A stretch of DNA of 27,977 nt from Pseudomonadota bacterium (lineage in GTDB: Bacteria; Bdellovibrionota_B; Oligoflexia; Oligoflexales; RGVZ01), in contig JBEGVZ010000047.1 of the NCBI GenBank assembly GCA_041178085.1, positions 1 to 27,977 of the forward strand. Reading direction: 5' to 3'. The notes beneath the pieces were generated by a model. It worked only from the letters and a program-made list of their open reading frames with translations. It had not been told where the DNA came from and did no database searches. This document shows, in pieces, positions 1,593 through 27,168 of the stretch. The position numbers and the translations under genes were made by a program. Position 1 is the first letter of the stretch, and every line of letters starts with the position of its first letter.

Positions 1593-2867
1593 TCAGAGAT
1601 TCGCACCGATACCGGCGCCGAAGCCTGTTTCCTTCATGGCCGTCTTGTCTGAACCAGATTTCAAGTCCAACCCACGGCGGTAAACCTCCGCTGACAGGCA
1701 GAATCCGTAATTGAGGCAATTCAGATAGCCGGCATTGAATACGGACAGGCTTCCATCACCGCGGGTCACCAGCTGGGCGGATCCGTACCAGGTAATCCCT
1801 TGCTTGATCCACTGCGGTTGGATACGGAGCCCGACAAAACCACGGGGTTCAAAATCCTGGGCCACGGGTAATGAAACCAGGCTGGCCTGAGGACCGACAT
1901 GCAGCGCAAAACCCTCTGGTTTTGCCCCAAAAAATCGGGTCACATCGTAGCCAACAGAAAAATTACCAAAGATGTGCTTTATGACCTCGGGCGGCTGGTC
2001 GGACGGAGCAGACGGGTAGGATGCCTTGATCCCGTGCCACTCGAGGTCCACAAAGATGCTGGCCGGATAAAAGGAAACGTCCTCCAGACGCAAAGCTCCA
2101 CCGATCGATTTCCCTCCTGATACCGAATAAGCAAGATCCCGCTGGATCTCCAGGTCCTCCGCCAGAACAATCTTACCCAGCAGGCGGAAAGAACTTACCG
2201 ACTCACGCACAGGATCACGCGGGTCGATGATATTTGCGAATGGTCCGAGGTAAACCTCCTCCGCTGGGGCGGCAGCTTCGGTCTTTGGGTAGAGCCATTC
2301 AGAGACCCTGTAAGTTGAGACACCGGTGCGCTGGACCTTGCCCATTCGCAGGCCCACAAAAGCGGCCGCGGTCTGATCATACAGGGGGTTCTCTTCTGAC
2401 GGGAAAATCCGGTAGATCTGCGCCTTGGCCCCCCCCGTCAACAAGGCCGTCTTGCCACGGAAACGGTATATGCGCTCGTACTTGTCTTTTGCTTCGCCCT
2501 CCAGCTTCTGCGTTGAAACCAGCCAAAGGGAATCTCCCCGAGCATCTGCACCTAGATCCAGGTGAACACCATCAACGCCTCCGGCAACCATCACGATCAC
2601 GCCGGGATGACGGTCGACCTCTCCAGTCGACTTTTTCCAACGCCAGAACAGGGGGGCGTCAGAGGCCAGAGATTCCATGGTCGCCCCGGATGAAAAAGCC
2701 GGATCGGCACTGACTTCCAGCACCAGCCCGGATGCCTTCAGTTTGGTCCAGCTGGCAGGGTCTGCAAGTTGGGATGCAACCGCCACAGGCGCTTGCCAGA
2801 TACAAACCATTATCAGGGACAGACCTGAAAAAAAGTGAGCTCGAAGGGCTTTTCGAAGGGACAGCAT
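1593..2867 (-). CDS. Hypothetical secreted protein, 424 aa, probable C-terminal outer-membrane beta-barrel
   Basis: Long ORF with a basic N-terminus, hydrophobic stretch and AVA|S cleavage-like site. The C-terminal half has alternating hydrophobic/aromatic strands ending GFGAGIGANL. No family recognised. Confidence 0.7.
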   Translation of the reverse strand: MLSLRKALRAHFFSGLSLIMVCIWQAPVAVASQLADPASWTKLKASGLVLEVSADPAFSSGATMESLASDAPLFWRWKKSTGEVDRHPGVIVMVAGGVDGVHLDLGADARGDSLWLVSTQKLEGEAKDKYERIYRFRGKTALLTGGAKAQIYRIFPSEENPLYDQTAAAFVGLRMGKVQRTGVSTYRVSEWLYPKTEAAAPAEEVYLGPFANIIDPRDPVRESVSSFRLLGKIVLAEDLEIQRDLAYSVSGGKSIGGALRLEDVSFYPASIFVDLEWHGIKASYPSAPSDQPPEVIKHIFGNFSVGYDVTRFFGAKPEGFALHVGPQASLVSLPVAQDFEPRGFVGLRIQPQWIKQGITWYGSAQLVTRGDGSLSVFNAGYLNCLNYGFCLSAEVYRRGLDLKSGSDKTAMKETGFGAGIGANL

Positions 2868-2874
2868 GGGGCTC

Positions 2875-2907
2875 CAACAATTTCACGTAATTGTTGAAAT
2901 TCTAGCA
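2875..2907 (-). promoter_or_regulatory. Extended -10 promoter (TG-C-TAGAAT) followed by an 8-6-8 inverted repeat (candidate operator)
   Basis: Minus strand TGCTAGAAT at 2907-2899. CAACAATT-tcacgt-AATTGTTG at 2875-2896 spans the predicted start site just upstream of the ATG at 2867. Confidence 0.45.
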
Positions 2908-2955
2908 TGCCCGGGCGGCTACTGGCAGCGGGGCGGCAAAGCGAAGCGAGGGGGT

Positions 2956-3267
2956 GCAGTTTAGGGGCTGATAAATGAGGACCGCAGGCCAGGAGCAACG
3001 CCGCAGATGTCCCTGAAAACGGGGACGCTGAAAAAGGGACAGATGCAAGGCGCGACGCAGCCAAGGACCGCAGTTTACTGCCAGGTAAATGAGGACCGCA
3101 GGCCAGGAGCAACGCCCCAGATGTCCCTGAAAAGGGTACCGAAAACGGGGACGCTGAAAAAGGGACAGATGCAAGGCGCGACGCAGCCGAGGCCCGCAGT
3201 TTACTGCCTGGTAAATGAGGACCGGAGGCCAGGAGCAACGCCGCAGATGTCCCTTTTTCAGCGTCCC
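2956..3267. repeat. Tandem array of three related ~120-bp palindromic elements (periods 114 and 126 bp)
   Basis: TAAATGAGGACCG[C/G]AGGCCAGGAGCAACGCC[G/C]CAGATGTCCCT recurs at 2972, 3086 and 3212. GGGACGCTGAAAAAGGGACAGATGCAAGGCGCGACGCAGCC recurs at 3022 and 3148. Confidence 0.95.
3148..3267. mobile_element. Complete 120-bp MITE/ERIC-like element with perfect 20-bp terminal inverted repeats
   Basis: GGGACGCTGAAAAAGGGACA (3148-3167) and TGTCCCTTTTTCAGCGTCCC (3248-3267), central TTTAC-N6-GTAAA hairpin, no transposase. Mobility is inferred. Confidence 0.65.
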
Positions 3268-3268
3268 G

Positions 3269-5350
3269 TCAGCGGCCCGTGATTCGGGTGAGCGTCGCGG
3301 GGGCAACCGGCTGATAGCTGTCAAATCGCATCGTGTAGGTCGCCCGCCCCTGGGAAATCGACCTCAGCTGGGTCGAATAACCGAACATCTGCTCGAGGGG
3401 GGCCGAGGCTTCGACCACCTGCAAGTGTCCGCGCATCGAAACGTTATTGATTTGGGCGCGGCGGCTGTTGAGGTCCGTGATGACGTTACTCAAATAGTCT
3501 TCGGGGACAAGGACCTCGATCCACATGACCGGCTCAAGCAGCTGGGGCGCAGCCTGACGAAGGGCCTGACGAAGGGCCAAAGACGCGGCCACCTTGAAGG
3601 AATTTTCACTGGAGATTTGCTGGTCAAATGCGCCCCCCAGAAGCTCTGCGCTGACACCAATCACCGGGAACCCGGCAATAGCACCCGCTTGCATCGACTC
3701 TAGAAGGCCCTTCCGCACGCCCTCCACAAATTGGGGAGGGACTTGCAACGGAGACGCCTTGTTCTTGAACAGGAGTCCGCCCTGGCCATCCGCACCCTCG
3801 GCTGGTTTCACGGCAATCCGGACCTTAGCGAACTGGGCCACCCCAGCGCCTTCACGGGCAAATGTTTCTTCGACTTCCGCTTCACCCATGATCGTTTCGC
3901 GGTAAGAAACCTGGGGGGCACCGACGTTGGCCTCGACCTTGAACTCCCGCTTCAAGCGGTCGACGATGATGTCGAGGTGCAACTCGCCCATGCCGTTGAT
4001 CAGTGTCTGTCCCGTTTCGCTGTTGTAGTTTACCCGGAAAGATGGATCTTCGTTTTCGAGGCGTTCGAGGGACTTCATGAGCTTTTCGAGATCTGCGGTG
4101 CTTTTCGGTTCGATAGCGATCGAAATCACCGGTTCCGGAAAAACAACAGACTCAAATCGGATTGGATGCTTCTGGTCACAAATCGTATCACCGGTCGCAA
4201 TCTGTTTGAGGCCGGACAGGGCGCAAATATCCCCAGCCTCTACGGTCTGGAGTTCTTCTCGTTGATTGGCCTGCATGCGCAGGATCTTGGTGATCCGCTC
4301 ACGTTTGCCAGTCCGGGTATTCAGCACAACCTCGCCCACAGAAAGCTTGCCGGAATAGACGCGCGCAAAAACCACCTGACCAACAAAGGGATCACTCATG
4401 ATCTTGAAGGCGATGCCTGAAAATGGCTCACCGGCGTCGCGCTTGCGCACCAGCTTGGTTTCCTTGTCATCTGCGCTCAGACCTTCCACAGGAGGCAAAT
4501 CAAGGGGCGAAGGCAGGTAATCAATCACGGCATCGAGAAGGGGCTGGACGCCTTTGTTCTTGAAGGCACTGCCGCAGAAAACAGGAACAATCTTGAAGGC
4601 AATGGTTGCACGGCGGGCTGCAGCCTTGAGTTCCGCCTCTGAGGGCTCAACCCCTTCGAGGTATTTTTCCGCAATCACATCGTCAACATCTGCGAGCGAA
4701 GAAATCAAAGTCTCGCGGGCGGAAGTTGCTGCATCTTTCAGTTCAGAGGGAATAGCAGTCTCTTGGTACTTTTCACCGCGGGTCGTGTCGTCAGCAGCCC
4801 ACAAGAGAGCCTTCATGCGCACCAGGTCAATCATGCCGGCAAATGCATCTTCAGCACCGACAGGAAGCTGGAAAGCGACGGGGTTCGCTGCCAGCCGCTC
4901 GCGGATCGACTGCACTGAGGCATCAAAGTCGGCGCCAACACGGTCGAGCTTGTTGATGAATGCAATGCGAGGGACATGATATTTGTCGGCTTGGCGCCAA
5001 ACCGTTTCCGACTGGGGTTCGACCCCGGAAACACCGTCGAACACGGCAACTGCCCCGTCAAGAATCCGCAGCGAACGTTCAACTTCGATGGTGAAGTCAA
5101 CGTGACCTGGCGTGTCGATGATATTGATCTGGTTGTTGCGCCACTTGCACGATACTGCGGCTGCTGTGATGGTGATGCCGCGCTCTTGCTCCTGCACCAT
5201 CCAATCTGTCGTGGCTGTGCCTTCGTGGACTTCACCGATCTTGTGGATCTTGCCTGTGTAATAAAGGATGCGTTCTGTCGTCGTCGTCTTGCCCGCGTCA
5301 ATGTGGGCCATGATGCCGATGTTACGAAGGATCGATTGGTCAAGTGCCAT
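3269..5350 (-). CDS. fusA: Elongation factor G (divergent domain IV; possibly recycling-type paralogue)
   Basis: [49 protein letters not shown]. Start taken at ATG 5350 (MALDQ), 693 aa. Confidence 0.95.
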
Positions 5351-21126: not shown

Positions 21127-22604
21127 GATTCGGTCTTCACTTTCTTCATGTCCACCCCCCAGCCCTTGAGCTTTTTGTGCAGGTGGCTGCGCTCGAGGCC
21201 AATCGCTTCGGCGGTCTTGGTTATGTTCCACTGGTTTTCATTCAAGCGTTCGAGCACGAAGTTCCGCTCAAAATCCGACTTCGCCTGTTTCAGGCTGCCC
21301 GGGCCCATGATGGGGGATGCAGCAACCGGCCGCTCATGCTGCTCTGACTGGACATGACGGACCATCGCCTCCGGCAGGTCGGCGACATCGATCTCATGAT
21401 CGAAGACGATGATGCAGAGACGCTCTAACAGGTTCTTGAGTTCACGCACATTCCCTGGCCACGGGTAATTGACGAATACTTCCAGTGCTTCGTCAGTCAA
21501 TTGCTTGCGGGGCTCCTGAAGCTCAAATGCAAGCTGATCCAGGAAAAACTCGGCAAGGTAAGGAATGTCCTCACGCCGTTCGCGCAAAGGCGGGATGTAA
21601 ACCGGGATGACGTTGAGGCGGTGATACAGATCTTCACGGAACCGTCCGGCCTTGATCTCGGTTTGCAGGTCCTTGTTGGTGGCGGCGAGCACCCGGACAT
21701 CGACATCGATCGACTGGCTGTCGCCAAGCCGTTCGAAACGCTGCTCCTGCAGGATGCGCAGGATCTTTGCCTGGGTGCGCAGCGACATGTCCCCAATCTC
21801 ATCCAGGAACAGCGTCCCGCCGTTGGCCAGCTCGAACTTCCCTTTTTTGGCGGCGAAGGCACTGGTGAACGCGCCCTTGGCGTGACCGAACAACTCGGAC
21901 TCGATCAGTTCCTCGGGAATTGCCGCGCAATTCACCGCAATAAATGGCTTTTGAGCGCGCGGGCTGGCCGCATGGATGCAGCGCGCAACCACTTCCTTCC
22001 CTGTTCCATTTTCCCCTGTGACCAGCACCCAGCTGTTGCGCGGACCCACGGTTTCAATCATGCGCCGGACATTCGCCGTGGCAGGAGCAACCCCGCGGAA
22101 CTGATTTTCCACACCGCGCTTGACCGATTTGGAACTCGGCCCGGAAAATACGGCGGCATTGACTGAGACCTCGGTCGGCGCGTCACCACGCTCAGCCTGG
22201 GACCGCCGACGATCGCGCAACTCCGCTGCATGGGCGGTCATTGGCAGGAGTTTATCCAGGGACAGCGGCTTTTCGAGGAAGTCAAAGGCACCAAGCTTCG
22301 TGCACTTGACGGCCGTATCAATCGTGCCGTGACCACTCATGATGACCACCGGAATATCATCGCGCAGGGCTTTGAGCCGTTGCAGCGTCTCAATCCCGTC
22401 AAGACCAGGCATCCAGACGTCCAGCAACACCAGGTCAGGCGCTTCGGCCTTGAACCGCTGAATGCCTTCGTGTCCAGAGATGGCATGAACGGCGCGCCAC
22501 CCCTCGTCGGCCAGCACACCACACAGCGCGTGGCAAATGCTGACCTCATCGTCAATGACAAGGGCCAGAGGCTTGTTTCCTGCAACTGTCGTGACTTCAG
22601 TCAT
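21123..22604 (-). CDS. ntrX: Sigma54-dependent response regulator, NtrX/NtrC family
   Basis: Receiver domain (VIDDE, LLDVWMP, EKP), Walker A GENGTGKE, GAFTSA, Walker B LFLDEIGD, FREDLYHRLNV, Fis-type HTH. Start at ATG 22604 (ATGA overlap with the kinase stop). Confidence 0.88.
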   Translation of the reverse strand: MTEVTTVAGNKPLALVIDDEVSICHALCGVLADEGWRAVHAISGHEGIQRFKAEAPDLVLLDVWMPGLDGIETLQRLKALRDDIPVVIMSGHGTIDTAVKCTKLGAFDFLEKPLSLDKLLPMTAHAAELRDRRRSQAERGDAPTEVSVNAAVFSGPSSKSVKRGVENQFRGVAPATANVRRMIETVGPRNSWVLVTGENGTGKEVVARCIHAASPRAQKPFIAVNCAAIPEELIESELFGHAKGAFTSAFAAKKGKFELANGGTLFLDEIGDMSLRTQAKILRILQEQRFERLGDSQSIDVDVRVLAATNKDLQTEIKAGRFREDLYHRLNVIPVYIPPLRERREDIPYLAEFFLDQLAFELQEPRKQLTDEALEVFVNYPWPGNVRELKNLLERLCIIVFDHEIDVADLPEAMVRHVQSEQHERPVAASPIMGPGSLKQAKSDFERNFVLERLNENQWNITKTAEAIGLERSHLHKKLKGWGVDMKKVKTES

Positions 22605-24904
22605 GTTGAAACCCACTCCGACGGCCGAGTCTGGGCCAGTTCACGACCCAGCGGCAATTCAATCACGACCGTGGTGCCACCCGCCGGCGTGTCTGTGATT
22701 CGCACGTAACCCCCATGATCAGACACGATCTGGTTGACGATCGCAAGGCCGAGTCCAGTGCCGCCCGCGCGCGCAGAGAAATAAGGTTCAAGGACACGGT
22801 CCTTGAGGCCATCGGGAATGCCACAACCGAAATCAACGACTTCCACGCGCACCGCATTGGCGTCAGGAACCAGGCGGGAGTGGAATTCGATGCGGGCCGG
22901 GCGACTGACGCCCTCGAAGGCAGCAATGGCGTTGGACACCAGGTTTACGAAAACCCGGTTCAACTGTTCGCGATCGATCGGCAGGTCGGGTAGTTCACCC
23001 AATCCGTCCGTCACTAGCTCAACTTCCGGGTAGCTCATCCGGTAGAGGTTCACGACATCCATGATCACGGCGTTGACACTGCCCATCCGGGGCTGGATCG
23101 AAGGCAGGCGCGCAAACTTGGAAAATTCATTGACGAGATCACGCAAAGAGTCGACCTGAACAACAATGGTGTCAATGCAGGATTCAAAAACCTGCCGGTC
23201 TTCTCCTGAGAACTTCTCGCCGAAACGACGAAGAAGCCGCTGAGCGCTCAGCTTGATCGGCGTGACCGGATTCTTGATCTCGTGGGCAATACGCCGCGCG
23301 ACCTCGCGCCATGCGGCAACGCGCTGAGCCTTGACCTGTTCCGTGGCATCGTCGAATACAACAATGGATCCGCGATCCTCGCCAGTCTCGTCGTAGATCC
23401 GGGTGGCTTCGGCGAGCAGGGTCATGATCCGTCCGCCCACATCTACTTCAAGCTGCCCCGAAAAAGAGGAGTGCCGGCCTATCCGCGCCGCAACAGGTCG
23501 CCAGAAATCCTCATTCAGTGTGGGGCCAAGCGCGTCCGCCGCCAGCTTGCCCGAGGCGGTTGAAGCTTCGATACCCAGGATGCGCTCCGCCGCGCGGTTG
23601 ACGGTCGTCACACGGTCCGAAGGGTCCACAGCCATGACGCCGGTGTTCACATTTTTAAGAATCACCTCCATGTATCGGCGGCGCTGATCTAGCTCCACGT
23701 TGGTGCTGCGCAAACGGGCCTGGGAAGCCTCGACATCCTTCTTGTGTTGGCGCAGGTCACGGGTCATCTGGTTGAACGAGCGCACCAGCTGGCCGATCTC
23801 ATCATCGTTTTTGGGCATGAGGGAAATGCTGTAGTTGCCGAGGGCGATCTCACGTGTTGCCTCGGCCAGGCTCTGGAGTGGCCCGGTGATGGTCCTGGCC
23901 ACGTAAAAACCAAGCCAGACCGCCGTGAAGGTAATCATGAGTACCATCATGACCATGAGGATCAAAAAGCTGACCCGGATGATCTGTGCGCCGGGACGAA
24001 GGGAAGCAAAGCCGGCAAGAATTGTCTCGATACTGTTGAGGATCCTGGTCTCGAAGTATTCCTCGATCACCACGGCACCAGCCAGTTCACCTGATTCCCG
24101 GTCGCGGACTGGTGCTATCCCGCGCACGACGTCCCGGCGTTCGTCGCCCTCCACGGAACCGATGGACACCAATCCAGGATCAGCCTCGAAGCGTTCCAGG
24201 GCAGACATGATAAAAAGGTCAGGCGCCGCACGACGCAGTCGAACTGGCGCAGAACGAACCAGTGAACCACCACGATCCACCACCAGGACGGCCTTGACGC
24301 CATACTCTCCTTCGAATCCATCGAGCTGGCGGGAATTCAATTTCCACACCGGATAACCAGCCACCCAGCCAGCGCGCCGTGCCGAAACCTTTTCCACGGC
24401 AATGCGGGCCAGCCCGTCAATTCGCTTCTGGTCCTGCCGATAGATGCGGGCGCCGGCCTCGCGCGTCTGCTGCATCGTGGTGCGGACACGCTCCGAGAAC
24501 CATTCGTCAAAACTGCGGGAAATGAAGCCTGTTGACACGTAAAACAGAACCAATGTTGGAACCAGGGCAAAGACCACGAGAATCGTGACCAGCTTGATTT
24601 TGAGGCGAGATCCCAGCACCCCGCGGCGGCGATCGATGAGCAGCTTGATCACATTGCGGAAGATCAGGAAGCTCAAAACCAGGATCAGGATCACGTTAAT
24701 GTTGATGATCCCGAAATAAATGACGGTACTGATAAAGTGACGGTTCTGGGAGAGGCTCTCGCTCAGGTGGAACAGGCGCGTCTCAAGCACGCCGGTCGCA
24801 CCCAGCATGAGCGCAGCAAGGATAACCGCGGCGGCCTCAAGGATCCTGCGGCGCTTGCCTTGAAAACCGAACCGCCTGCGATGTTTCGTGGCCAGACGCC
24901 GCAA
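22601..24904 (-). CDS. ntrY: NtrY-like membrane sensor histidine kinase (multi-TM, HAMP, PAS, HisKA, HATPase)
   Basis: SFDEWFS, HAMP (PLQSLAEATREIA.GN..DEIGQLVRSFNQM), AQRVAAWREVARRIAHEIKNPVTPIKLSAQRL, G boxes DFGCGI and GGTGLGLAIV. Confidence 0.9.
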   Translation of the reverse strand: MRRLATKHRRRFGFQGKRRRILEAAAVILAALMLGATGVLETRLFHLSESLSQNRHFISTVIYFGIININVILILVLSFLIFRNVIKLLIDRRRGVLGSRLKIKLVTILVVFALVPTLVLFYVSTGFISRSFDEWFSERVRTTMQQTREAGARIYRQDQKRIDGLARIAVEKVSARRAGWVAGYPVWKLNSRQLDGFEGEYGVKAVLVVDRGGSLVRSAPVRLRRAAPDLFIMSALERFEADPGLVSIGSVEGDERRDVVRGIAPVRDRESGELAGAVVIEEYFETRILNSIETILAGFASLRPGAQIIRVSFLILMVMMVLMITFTAVWLGFYVARTITGPLQSLAEATREIALGNYSISLMPKNDDEIGQLVRSFNQMTRDLRQHKKDVEASQARLRSTNVELDQRRRYMEVILKNVNTGVMAVDPSDRVTTVNRAAERILGIEASTASGKLAADALGPTLNEDFWRPVAARIGRHSSFSGQLEVDVGGRIMTLLAEATRIYDETGEDRGSIVVFDDATEQVKAQRVAAWREVARRIAHEIKNPVTPIKLSAQRLLRRFGEKFSGEDRQVFESCIDTIVVQVDSLRDLVNEFSKFARLPSIQPRMGSVNAVIMDVVNLYRMSYPEVELVTDGLGELPDLPIDREQLNRVFVNLVSNAIAAFEGVSRPARIEFHSRLVPDANAVRVEVVDFGCGIPDGLKDRVLEPYFSARAGGTGLGLAIVNQIVSDHGGYVRITDTPAGGTTVVIELPLGRELAQTRPSEWVST

Positions 24905-24922: not shown

Positions 24923-25576
24923 TCAACGCGGCTTACCCACCGGCAAGTGAATCTGTCCAAAGACCCGGTTGCGGTACTTGAACCGAATGCCCCCTCCAGG
25001 CAAGGGTTCAACCTCCACCTTTGCCGGGTCGGGAATGTTCGAACGGATCGATTCAAGCCGGATCTGGTCATCAGGCCGAAGCTTGATTCGCCCGCCGGGC
25101 AGGACCGTAACCGGACTGCCATTAACCAGCATCACCGCATAATCAAAGCGGGGCTCGGCGACAACCAGTTTGATGTTGCCCATGACCCGGTCGCCGGCAC
25201 GGATGACGACCCGGTAGTTCTTTTTCAACATCGCAGAGGTGTGGATGACCGCGCCTGCCTCGTTGCGGGGCCCGGCCGGGTTATTCTCAGGAGCAAGCTC
25301 GAATTCCTCAACGTCAATCGCAGCGTTGGCAAGGCTTCCACCCGGTGCGTTATGAAAAACCGCCCGTTCCAGAACGACATCGTCGCCGCGATAAAGATCC
25401 AAGTCCTGCCCGGGGCGGACAGCGGTTTTTTCCCCATTGATAGAAACCAGGACGTGCGCCAGGGTGGGTCGCAGTCGTTTGCCCCCTGCCGCAAGTGCGT
25501 TGCCCCCGGTGACGGACACCAGGAAAAAGGTTGCGATCAAATTCACTACAGCCATCGAAGCCGCTGAAATTCTCAT
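24923..25576 (-). CDS. Hypothetical exported protein with two internal beta-rich repeats
   Basis: GGAGG SD, signal peptide ending ALA, repeats HVLVSINGEKTAVRPGQDLDLYRGDDVVLE and YAVMLVNGSPVTVLPGGRIKLRPDDQIRLE. Ends 18 nt before ntrY. Confidence 0.75.
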   Translation of the reverse strand: MRISAASMAVVNLIATFFLVSVTGGNALAAGGKRLRPTLAHVLVSINGEKTAVRPGQDLDLYRGDDVVLERAVFHNAPGGSLANAAIDVEEFELAPENNPAGPRNEAGAVIHTSAMLKKNYRVVIRAGDRVMGNIKLVVAEPRFDYAVMLVNGSPVTVLPGGRIKLRPDDQIRLESIRSNIPDPAKVEVEPLPGGGIRFKYRNRVFGQIHLPVGKPR

Positions 25577-25615: not shown

Positions 25616-26641
25616 ATGGACAAATCCACGCAAAATCCCAAGTCGGCTGGACTTCTGGACCTCCAGATCTCCGGATTTCCTGAGACGCTGAAGGCTCGCG
25701 GCAAGCAGCCGTCCACTGTGGAATCATACACCAGGGATGCCGACAGGTTTCTGGAGTTCATGAAAGAGAAAAAAATTCCTGTCCGGGACCTTCGGCCAGA
25801 AATCCTGCTGGAGTACGAAAACTACCTGCGCAACGATCGCGAGGGACGAACCAATTCCGTGCGCAGGTCGTTGATCGGAATCCGCCAATATTTCCGCTAT
25901 TTGGTTGAGCAAAAGCAGCTGCGGGAGTCCCCCTTTGACACGGTGCCCCTGCCGGCAAGGGATGAAGGCTTGCCCGACCAGCTGGACGAAGAAGATGTCG
26001 CCATGCTGATGGAAGCGGCGGCCGCTACCACTCCTACTATCAAGGCCGCTCGTGATCGGGCAGTCGTGGCCCTGCTGGCCTGGGAAGGGATCAAGGCAAC
26101 CGAACTGATCCACTTGACGTGGAGCGACCTGATTCTGGATGGGAGCGTTGGACTCAGCGGACGACCGAGTTCCGGAGGGAGCTTGTCGGTCCCCGGAGAC
26201 CGCGGGCGCACCATCGTCCTGGGGCCGGAAACAGCAAGCATTCTGGAGGCCTACCGCGAAATGTTTCGTGAGTGGTCGGCGCGCAGGCCCGGGGTTGTGA
26301 CCCGGATGTTCATCTCATTTAAGGGACGGGAATCAGCGATTGCAACCCCGACCATGACCCGCCACGGGCTCAAGTTTGTCATGTACGAACTGGGCGAAAA
26401 GATTGGTATTTCAAAGCTCAACTCCGAGCTGCTGCGGCACCATGCCATCCGCCACCAGCTGTCGCTCGGCAAAAGCCCCGAGGATTTGATGGGGCACCTG
26501 GGCCTGCGTCGGCTGGGCAACATCGCTCGCCACAACGCCCACGTTATGGTAAACCCCGCGCCACGCAAGGAATTGGAGGGGATGGCCGGCGGGCTACCCA
26601 CGGGTTCTGGAAGTGACGACGAATTCGAAAACAATCCATGA
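25616..26641 (+). CDS. XerC/D-like tyrosine-recombinase-fold protein, predicted catalytically inactive
   Basis: N-terminal core-binding domain (STVESYTRDADRF, SVRRSLIGIRQYFRYL, LPDQLDEEDV), RDRAVVALL..GIK.TELIHL...D, LLRH. Catalytic positions are substituted (see findings). Confidence 0.88.
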   Translation: MDKSTQNPKSAGLLDLQISGFPETLKARGKQPSTVESYTRDADRFLEFMKEKKIPVRDLRPEILLEYENYLRNDREGRTNSVRRSLIGIRQYFRYLVEQKQLRESPFDTVPLPARDEGLPDQLDEEDVAMLMEAAAATTPTIKAARDRAVVALLAWEGIKATELIHLTWSDLILDGSVGLSGRPSSGGSLSVPGDRGRTIVLGPETASILEAYREMFREWSARRPGVVTRMFISFKGRESAIATPTMTRHGLKFVMYELGEKIGISKLNSELLRHHAIRHQLSLGKSPEDLMGHLGLRRLGNIARHNAHVMVNPAPRKELEGMAGGLPTGSGSDDEFENNP

Positions 26642-27122
26642 CGAATACATGGCCGAGGCACTGCGCCTTGCCGCCTTTGCTGCGACCATTGGCGAAGTCC
26701 CGGTCGGAGCCGTGGTGGTCAAGGATGGCGAAATCATTGGCCGGGGCTACAACCGCCGCGAAATTGAAGGCCAGGCTACCCGCCACGCAGAAATCGTAGC
26801 CATGGAAGAAGCCTCGGAAACCCTCGGGGCGTGGCGCCTTTCCGGCTGCACGCTTTACGTAACCCTTGAGCCTTGTTTGATGTGTGCCGGCGCGATCTAC
26901 CAGGCCCGCGTGGACGAAGTCCATTTTGGTGCCTGGGATGCAAAAGCGGGAGCTTGTGGGAGCCTCTACAAGATCCACGAAGACTCTCGCCTTAACCACC
27001 GCTTTCTGGTACACCCCGGGGTTCTGGAATCTGACAGCCGCGAAATGCTCCAGCAGTTTTTTCGCCGGCGGCGCCAACGGAGAGATGGCCGAGTGGTTGA
27101 AGGCGCTAGACTCGAAATCTAG
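26613..27122 (+). CDS. tadA: tRNA adenosine(34) deaminase
   Basis: DEYM.EAL, GEVPVGAVVV, HAE, LYVTLEPCLMCAGAI, DAKAGACGS, RLNH, LQQFFRRRR. Confidence 0.93.
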   Translation: MTTNSKTIHDEYMAEALRLAAFAATIGEVPVGAVVVKDGEIIGRGYNRREIEGQATRHAEIVAMEEASETLGAWRLSGCTLYVTLEPCLMCAGAIYQARVDEVHFGAWDAKAGACGSLYKIHEDSRLNHRFLVHPGVLESDSREMLQQFFRRRRQRRDGRVVEGARLEI

Positions 27123-27168
27123 TATACGTTAACGCGTATCGTGGGTTCGAATCCCACTCTCTCCGCCA
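27079..27168 (+). tRNA. tRNA-Ser(CGA)
   Basis: Acceptor GGAGAGA/TCTCTCC, anticodon arm CTAGA-CT-CGA-AA-TCTAG, long variable arm, G73 discriminator, CCA. Confidence 0.97.

Follow-up and report, generated by a model that had tools for sequence, protein, structure and literature searches.

The locus described here raises the question of why a bacterium would keep, at full length, a relative of the recombinase XerD that lacks the residues DNA cutting requires. The window is a stretch of 27,977 nucleotides from a genome of the order Oligoflexales (the source genome, G000). Its positions 25616-26641 on the forward strand form a single open reading frame of 341 codons without an internal stop, in keeping with the first-pass annotation, which had described an intact, full-length gene. 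We consider it probable (about 0.72) that the encoded protein is a non-cutting binder of polar sites around the replication terminus.

The locus, the fold and the active site

The gene and its surroundings comprise the following features.

25616..26641 (+): gene for the XerD-like protein predicted to be catalytically dead, 341 aa, family core at about residues 18-310
25673..25936 (+): core-binding (SAM-like) domain, residues 20-107, including N80-S81-x-R83-R84 (Pfam)
26093..26095 (+): K160, where XerD has its first catalytic Arg (R148); 149/150 relatives have Lys
26183..26209 (+): beta hairpin L190-R198, shortened with loss of the catalytic Lys position; R198 in 150/150
26360..26374 (+): recognition helix R249-H250-G251-x-K253 (XerD R220-Q221 position), 148-150/150 per position
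26426..26437 (+): E271-x-x-R274 at the H244-x-x-R247 position of XerD, E in 146/150, R in 150/150
26504..26533 (+): L297 (XerD H270) to H306 (XerD nucleophile Y279); at 306, His in 122, Phe in 10 and Tyr in 8 of 150
26613..27122 (+): tadA, NF008113 above cut-off, syntenic neighbour within the order
27079..27168 (+): tRNA-Ser(CGA)
24923..25576 (-): divergent hypothetical gene, 217 aa, no family above cut-off, upstream neighbour at most loci of the order
22601..24904 (-): HAMP-PAS histidine kinase of presumed NtrY type, conserved upstream neighbour

The order of the locus is ntrX, ntrY and the hypothetical gene (divergent), then the XerD-like gene, tadA and tRNA-Ser(CGA), with no cargo genes seen around it in the window; the NtrY-type name is our assignment from the domain order of the kinase. 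The XerD-like gene and the tadA frame overlap where the former ends, and the latter extends into the tRNA-Ser gene (26613-27168). Elsewhere in the window, at 2813-3300 and 3' of fusA, a repetitive stretch is visible as a repeated peptide in spurious open reading frames.

The core-binding and catalytic domains of the XerD fold are both present according to Pfam (Phage_integrase domain at residues 123-283), the AlphaFold model (mean pLDDT 87.5, with disorder at residues 1-13 and 325-340) and Foldseek, where XerA, XerH and Cre lead the match list; the matches in the ESM Atlas are integrase clusters only. The top NCBIfam match is the XerD model TIGR02225 at 106 bits, below the cut-off of 330, and the first sequence match among solved structures is E. 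coli XerD (PDB 1a0p, E 9e-13).

Alignment with XerD of E. coli K-12 shows five of the six catalytic residues replaced (R148 by K160, K172 by P193, H244 by E271, H270 by L297 and Y279 by H306), with R247 surviving alone as R274. The residue map of the first-pass annotation is recovered at all six positions, and the last Tyr is indeed residue 257, beyond which it had found none. The loss of the catalytic Lys, which it also recorded, can be refined: the hairpin bearing K172 is shorter by two residues, so that the Lys has been lost by deletion and not by substitution. The protein further differs from E. coli XerD in the His at the Q221 position, in an insert of 7-9 residues after FKG and in a TIGR02225 score that is a third of the cut-off.

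Conservation was counted in 150 near-full-length relatives (at least 200 bits, 270-380 aa), with 45 of the 195 scored proteins excluded as short, long or distant. Among the five catalytic positions scored, 141 of the 150 relatives retain one, 7 retain two and 2 retain three; the 141 keep the second Arg only. The substitutions are shared among orthologues, as the first-pass annotation anticipated for a domesticated protein (K160 in 149, E271 in 146 and R274 in all 150); position 297 is Leu in 135 relatives, and position 306 is Phe in the family f18, which we take to be probably the Silvanigrellaceae. The three members of the family f17 look intermediate, with the Tyr in two of three, His-III in two of three and the first Arg in one or two. 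An Arg-to-Lys mutant of the Tn1549 integrase, R225K, is reportedly cleavage-defective. The same change as at K160 is named in the PDB titles of DNA-bound integrase mutants, this one among them. Conservation is highest at residues predicted to face DNA, namely R83 and R84 (149 of 150 each), R198, R249, H250, G251, K253 and R274. H250 aligns with XerD Q221, a residue in contact with dif position 24 according to the accessible part of PMC2731167.

Spread, descent and the other recombinases

The gene is old and widely kept. A search across the order gives a match in 59 of 61 genomes, nearly all as one strong copy, and across the phylum 84 of 86 genomes (at least 90% complete, orthologue threshold 225 bits) have an orthologue, the gene belonging to the single-copy core. 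The exceptions in the phylum are G003, without a match, and G109, with a distant paralogue only, where ScpA and ScpB are kept and the dead XerD-like gene was not found. G029 also lacks the gene; G003 and G066 lack tadA too, so that the missing XerD-like gene in these two probably reflects assembly gaps. For 13 of the 15 pairs compared within the genus, dN/dS is 0.03-0.13; in the other two dS is saturated. The earlier proposal of a dead, domesticated DNA-binding protein under selection, with dN/dS below 1, agrees with these values, with the shared substitutions and with the position beside tadA at 34 of 37 genome loci of the order. The linkage to tadA holds within the order and fails outside it: orthologues in f17 and f18 sit beside other neighbours, and a functional tie to tadA is therefore unsupported. 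Recent decay is rejected by the substitutions fixed among the 150 relatives together with dN/dS, and a decaying integrase of a mobile element, prophage or island at the tRNA-Ser gene by synteny, single copy, presence in 84 of 86 genomes and dN/dS.

A 43-row tree groups the family as one clade (100/99) placed inside neither XerD nor XerC, and its subclades (f17, f18-like and Oligoflexales) follow the host groups. An origin from XerD is suggested by two signs: TIGR02225 scores exceed TIGR02224 scores, and the helix J signature RHG(L/I/V)K resembles RQG(L/F) of XerD. The replacements are old and fixed, and cleavage would have been given up in the ancestor of the phylum with sequence-specific DNA binding kept. 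Automatic annotation at NCBI names the homologues integrase/recombinase XerD.

The degenerate XerD of streptococci has a degenerate active site and is encoded beside scpAB. It is likewise a kept XerD with an altered site (NF002685 / PRK02436), in bacteria whose dimers are resolved by another enzyme. These profiles score the family at 25-52 bits against 178 and give no match for the source protein, and because the scores are so weak the loss of catalysis most likely occurred independently in the two groups. Searches of the literature accessible to us, with most subscription papers outside it, gave no account of the family, of its candidate site or of missing XerCD in Oligoflexia, and the main text of a survey of tyrosine recombinases mentions neither Oligoflex nor Bdellovibrio.

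The first-pass annotation expected intact xerC and xerD elsewhere in the genome. This is not what is found. No protein exceeds the TIGR02225 cut-off in the 61 genomes of the order searched with that model; the highest score, 224 bits, comes from a bin with 8% contamination, and genuine XerC/XerD-like proteins reach 287-350 bits (XerC-like 287-327). In the source genome, neither a PF00589 profile search nor tblastn finds XerC or XerD, and the only other PF00589 match is a phage integrase, presumably P4-like. The dead XerD-like gene is the sole PF00589 match in G025, G040 and G049 (1, 1 and 7 contigs). Genomes of f18, on the other hand, carry an intact single-type tyrosine recombinase in 27 of 27 cases (340-400 aa, usually as two paralogues, the second close to the terminus in G100, G101, G105 and G106), against scores of 146 bits at most for this type in the remaining 77 genomes. 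A linear chromosome with a protelomerase was considered and rejected, PF16684 being present in 1 of the 61 genomes only.

A one-way motif around the terminus

Candidate sites were sought by ranking over-represented words in about 400 kb opposite parS in G025, G083 and G106. The word GGTTATGGTA ranks third of 16 shared 10-mers (5 copies against 0.35 expected, 4 against 0.51 and 3 against 0.57) and is lengthened by its sequence context to TGGTTATGGTAAGT. The candidate site reads (T)GGTTATGGTNAG in Oligoflexales and f17 and YGGTTATGG in f18. In the 77 genomes of Oligoflexales and f17 the exact 13-mer has 268 copies against 16 of the reversed controls, and in f18 it has 1 against 6. The 12-mer GGTTATGGTNAG numbers 763 copies against 240 in the same 77 genomes (median 10 against 3) and exceeds its control in 69 of them; the excess is absent in 8, including G050 and G065, which have zero copies and the gene present. 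The 9-mer GGTTATGGT by itself shows no excess over control in 20 genomes.

The last 11 bases of the motif, whose initial word was picked partly for its resemblance to dif, match the XerD arm of dif from E. coli K-12 at 9 of 11 positions (chance 0.001-0.003). Shared with E. coli XerD (TIGR02225, 1a0p) are, besides this likeness of the site, the two domains, the position of helix J and R247. The two departures fall on dif positions 23 and 27, and positions 23-24 are the XerD specificity positions in the available text of PMC2731167. The canonical dif pattern is not commoner than its control overall, and two perfect matches near predicted termini (G040 and G106) are within the control rate. No palindrome of two such arms was found in the polarity-flip regions examined in Oligoflexales and f17.

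The motif is strictly oriented with respect to replication, lying on the minus strand ahead of the terminus and on the plus strand past it, that is, on the lagging strand. All copies are polar in G083 (15/15), G049 (15/15), G040 (7/7), G025 (3/3) and contig 1 of G008 (10/10), and most are so for the f18 form CGGTTATGG in G100 (14/15), G101 (10/11), G105 (11/13) and G106 (12/16). The orientation flips at 0.44-0.61 of the circle from parS in G083, G049, G040, G025, G100, G101, G105 and G106. The flip falls near the GC-skew maximum in G061, G035, G040 and G049 and roughly so in G060, G073 and G083; the skew of G025 is too erratic for placing the terminus. In the source genome 10 copies are lagging (C-rich strand) and none leading, which 0 of 300 shuffled patterns match, where the pattern was chosen after viewing the near matches of that genome and the copies divide into 5 on clearly oriented and 5 on weakly skewed contigs.

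Sites of f18 (CGGTTATGG) also concentrate in the quarter opposite parS (G100 13/15, G101 10/11, G105 12/13, G106 12/16); in G083 only 5 of 15 do so (p 0.31). G049 carries six motif copies within 350 bases on either side of the terminus, at a spacing of 30-110 bases.

C1:779645-780001 and C1:912845-913137 in G049: six-copy motif arrays

The chromosomes of the phylum carry a one-way signal aimed at, and usually clustered round, the replication terminus.

The sites show little relation to genes. Of 30 sampled, 10 are inside open reading frames and 20 between unrelated genes in every orientation, and 45 of 66 lie in no open reading frame of at least 150 aa, a count in which the arrays of G049 weigh. 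The motif was considered as codons of a Walker A sequence (G-Y-G-K) and rejected, as that frame of a long open reading frame is used in 2 of 66 sites elsewhere and 2 of 10 here. It was also rejected as KOPS, being G-rich on the lagging strand and occurring where FtsK-gamma was not found.

Several further arrangements were seen. In the source genome, the arms of a perfect inverted repeat at G000:C102:18383-18406 are 9 bases long and resemble the motif core; they are set 6 bases apart, a spacing unlike that of dif. A second over-represented word, CACAATAAGT, occurs at 3.58-3.98 Mb of G083 (4 copies against 0.1 expected); it shares its TAAGT end with the motif and faces the other way at three of four places. 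In an f17 genome (G061:C114:1000-4500) a tyrosine recombinase frame of 257 aa, with Gln at the His-III position and the Tyr kept, lies between two co-oriented copies of the motif. G109 holds 3 copies of the f18 motif, a number intermediate between those expected for loss and for retention (p 0.06 and 0.22).

What the bound protein may do

The protein would very probably clamp onto (T)GGTTATGGTNAG or YGGTTATGG as onto half of a dif site. No other Xer-fold protein is shared across these genomes, and the recognition helix varies as little as does the core of the motif; the predicted link between protein and motif draws on likeness and co-occurrence. In f18 the intact tyrosine recombinase, present in all 27 genomes, could bind the shorter motif instead. 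Each site would have its outer end towards the origin and its inner end towards the terminus, so that a motor arriving from the origin would meet the outer face of the bound protein and a returning motor the inner face.

Among the possible tasks of such a protein, the likeliest, put forward tentatively, is that it stops or unloads Smc-ScpAB rings loaded at parS and travelling down the arms. This ranking is based on the presence of the partners and on the precedent of B. subtilis: ScpA and ScpB are found in 86 of 86 genomes, SMC in 5 of 5, and parS clusters in the source genome and in all 10 other genomes searched. XerD unloads Smc-ScpAB at dif-like XDS sites, as described in the accessible parts of PMC11840125, PMC11894783, PMC12322038 and PMC10945525. 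The XerD fold, the terminus sites resembling an arm of dif and the parS-loaded Smc-ScpAB all recall the system of B. subtilis and S. aureus as presented there. The XerD of those species, however, is an active recombinase working with XerC and dif, whereas the protein here is predicted from its sequence to be unable to cut, and neither XerC nor a palindromic dif was found beside it. Sites here also number about 10 per genome (median), are strictly polar and in part lie far along the arms; in G083 some are 0.5 Mb from the origin, which suits an unloader badly. The protein would then work like XerD at XDS sites from outside the active XerD family, the XDS task of B. subtilis XerD having been split off into a dedicated protein. 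Of the roles named in the first-pass annotation, that of a nucleoid or SMC factor fits the polar terminus motif.

The same polarity would serve a replication-fork trap built from a recombinase fold, in which the target is the replisome, forks running from origin to terminus are let through and overshooting forks are held at these sites. We regard this as rather unlikely, and as second to the SMC reading. The Tus/Ter sites of E. coli are polar around the terminus. The sites here resemble them in facing the terminus from both sides, and a strict polarity flipping there is just what traps of this type need. Correctly oriented sites along the arms, as in G083, would be harmless to such a trap, the tight six-site arrays of G049 flank the terminus, and tblastn finds no match to Tus in the source genome. 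On the other hand, a Xer protein that arrests forks is without precedent in the literature examined, a half site occupied by an asymmetric protein would be polar under the SMC reading too, and the count of wrongly oriented sites (0 seen against 0.48 expected) has little power to show a depletion.

Still less probable is a protein that steers or stops FtsK, or tethers the terminus to the cell-division apparatus in the manner of MatP, without acting on SMC. FtsK is present in 5 of 5 genomes, and the sites face a motor running from origin to terminus as the XerD arm of dif does. In the source genome GyrA/ParC and GyrB/ParE have only one locus each, beside the parS cluster (contig C23), and no Topo IV was found, so that the handling of the terminus would need other help. 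Yet FtsK-gamma was found neither in G025, which has clean sites, nor in G109, and the FtsK frames of G025, G040 and G049 are short (585-590 aa against 770-789 in G008 and G000). E184 of XerD has a role with FtsK, and its position holds Glu in only 53 of the 150 relatives. The canonical GGGNAGGG, moreover, already shows a leading-strand bias in the source genome (158 to 91). The matS-type sites of MatP thicken towards dif (PMC10945525, accessible part). Both MatP/matS and Tus/Ter of E. coli are functional analogues with folds unrelated to the XerD-like protein. These three tasks can be ranked in the order given, but sequence alone does not separate them.

A transcription regulator, or an inhibitor of incoming integrases, with the motif belonging to another protein, is improbable, although the first-pass annotation proposed both roles. 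MrpR of SP-beta (PMC10516654) and FliZ (PMC3367168) are precedents, in the accessible text of these papers, for a tyrosine-recombinase fold that binds DNA without recombination, and the gene is divergent from the hypothetical-ntrY-ntrX unit, as a regulator might be. Those two proteins are transcription repressors; the gene here belongs to the chromosomal core, and its candidate sites follow the polarity of the replichores rather than genes. Unrelated genes flank the sites, none of which, in full form, lies in the window, and if the motif is that of the protein its copies are not placed at the promoters of a gene set, unlike those of an MrpR-type repressor. An inhibitor fits poorly with the dead gene being the sole PF00589 match in three near-complete genomes, and no other candidate binder of the motif was found. 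Least probable of all is a rebuilt active site in which K160, E271, R274, R198 and H306 serve a different chemistry (nicking, hydrolysis or an intermediate linked through His): the replacements are fixed to an unusual degree (K160 in 149, E271 in 146, H306 in 122 of 150), some integrases relocate a catalytic Arg (IntCTnDOT; PMC8138268, accessible part) and f17 members keep the Tyr and in at least one case the first Arg, but position 306 is Phe in f18 and variable in 28 of 150, the source protein has no Tyr beyond residue 257, the examined flips hold no palindrome with two such arms, and numerous scattered cut sites would be harmful.

If the dead XerD-like protein is a non-cutting binder of terminus sites, chromosome dimers would be resolved by another enzyme. 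In f18 this would be the intact single-type tyrosine recombinase. In Oligoflexales a serine resolvase has possibly taken over, although as a candidate it falls short of even odds. PF00239 has matches in nearly every Oligoflexales genome (60 of 61), compared with 12 of 23 genomes in f18 and 1 of 2 in f17. The sole copy of the source genome (G000:C73:14226-14858, minus strand, 210 aa, YYRVS intact) shares 56-77% identity with 17 copies, which come from 16 genomes in 11 families and all carry YYRVS, and its neighbours are ordinary genes there as in G083 and G073. In G073 the polarity flip encloses the resolvase gene, and in G083 and G035 the two are no more than about 50 kb apart; in G040, G064, G049, G025 and G008 the distance is 0.2-0.8 Mb. 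No shared res-like word was found 5' of these genes. G083 has two copies about 8 kb apart. That Oligoflexales divided both Xer tasks, between a non-cutting one-way roadblock on half-dif sites and a domesticated serine dimer resolvase, is a more speculative proposal and an unlikely one as a whole; no such division was found in the accessible literature.

The findings bear on how bacteria without Xer recombinases resolve chromosome dimers, a question raised in the accessible text of PMC2731167, for which the conserved serine resolvase is a candidate replacement. Oligoflexales are an order with genomes of free-living size (2-10 Mb), with FtsK and RecA (the latter checked in one genome, the source genome) and with no detectable XerCD. 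The label integrase/recombinase XerD is misleading on genes that are catalytically dead. A natural separation-of-function XerD together with a predicted site would make the non-recombination role of XerD at the terminus directly testable. In this phylum the XerD-like protein is most likely a signpost or roadblock at the terminus and not an enzyme, as the loss of the residues needed for cutting and the matching one-way signal at the terminus together suggest.
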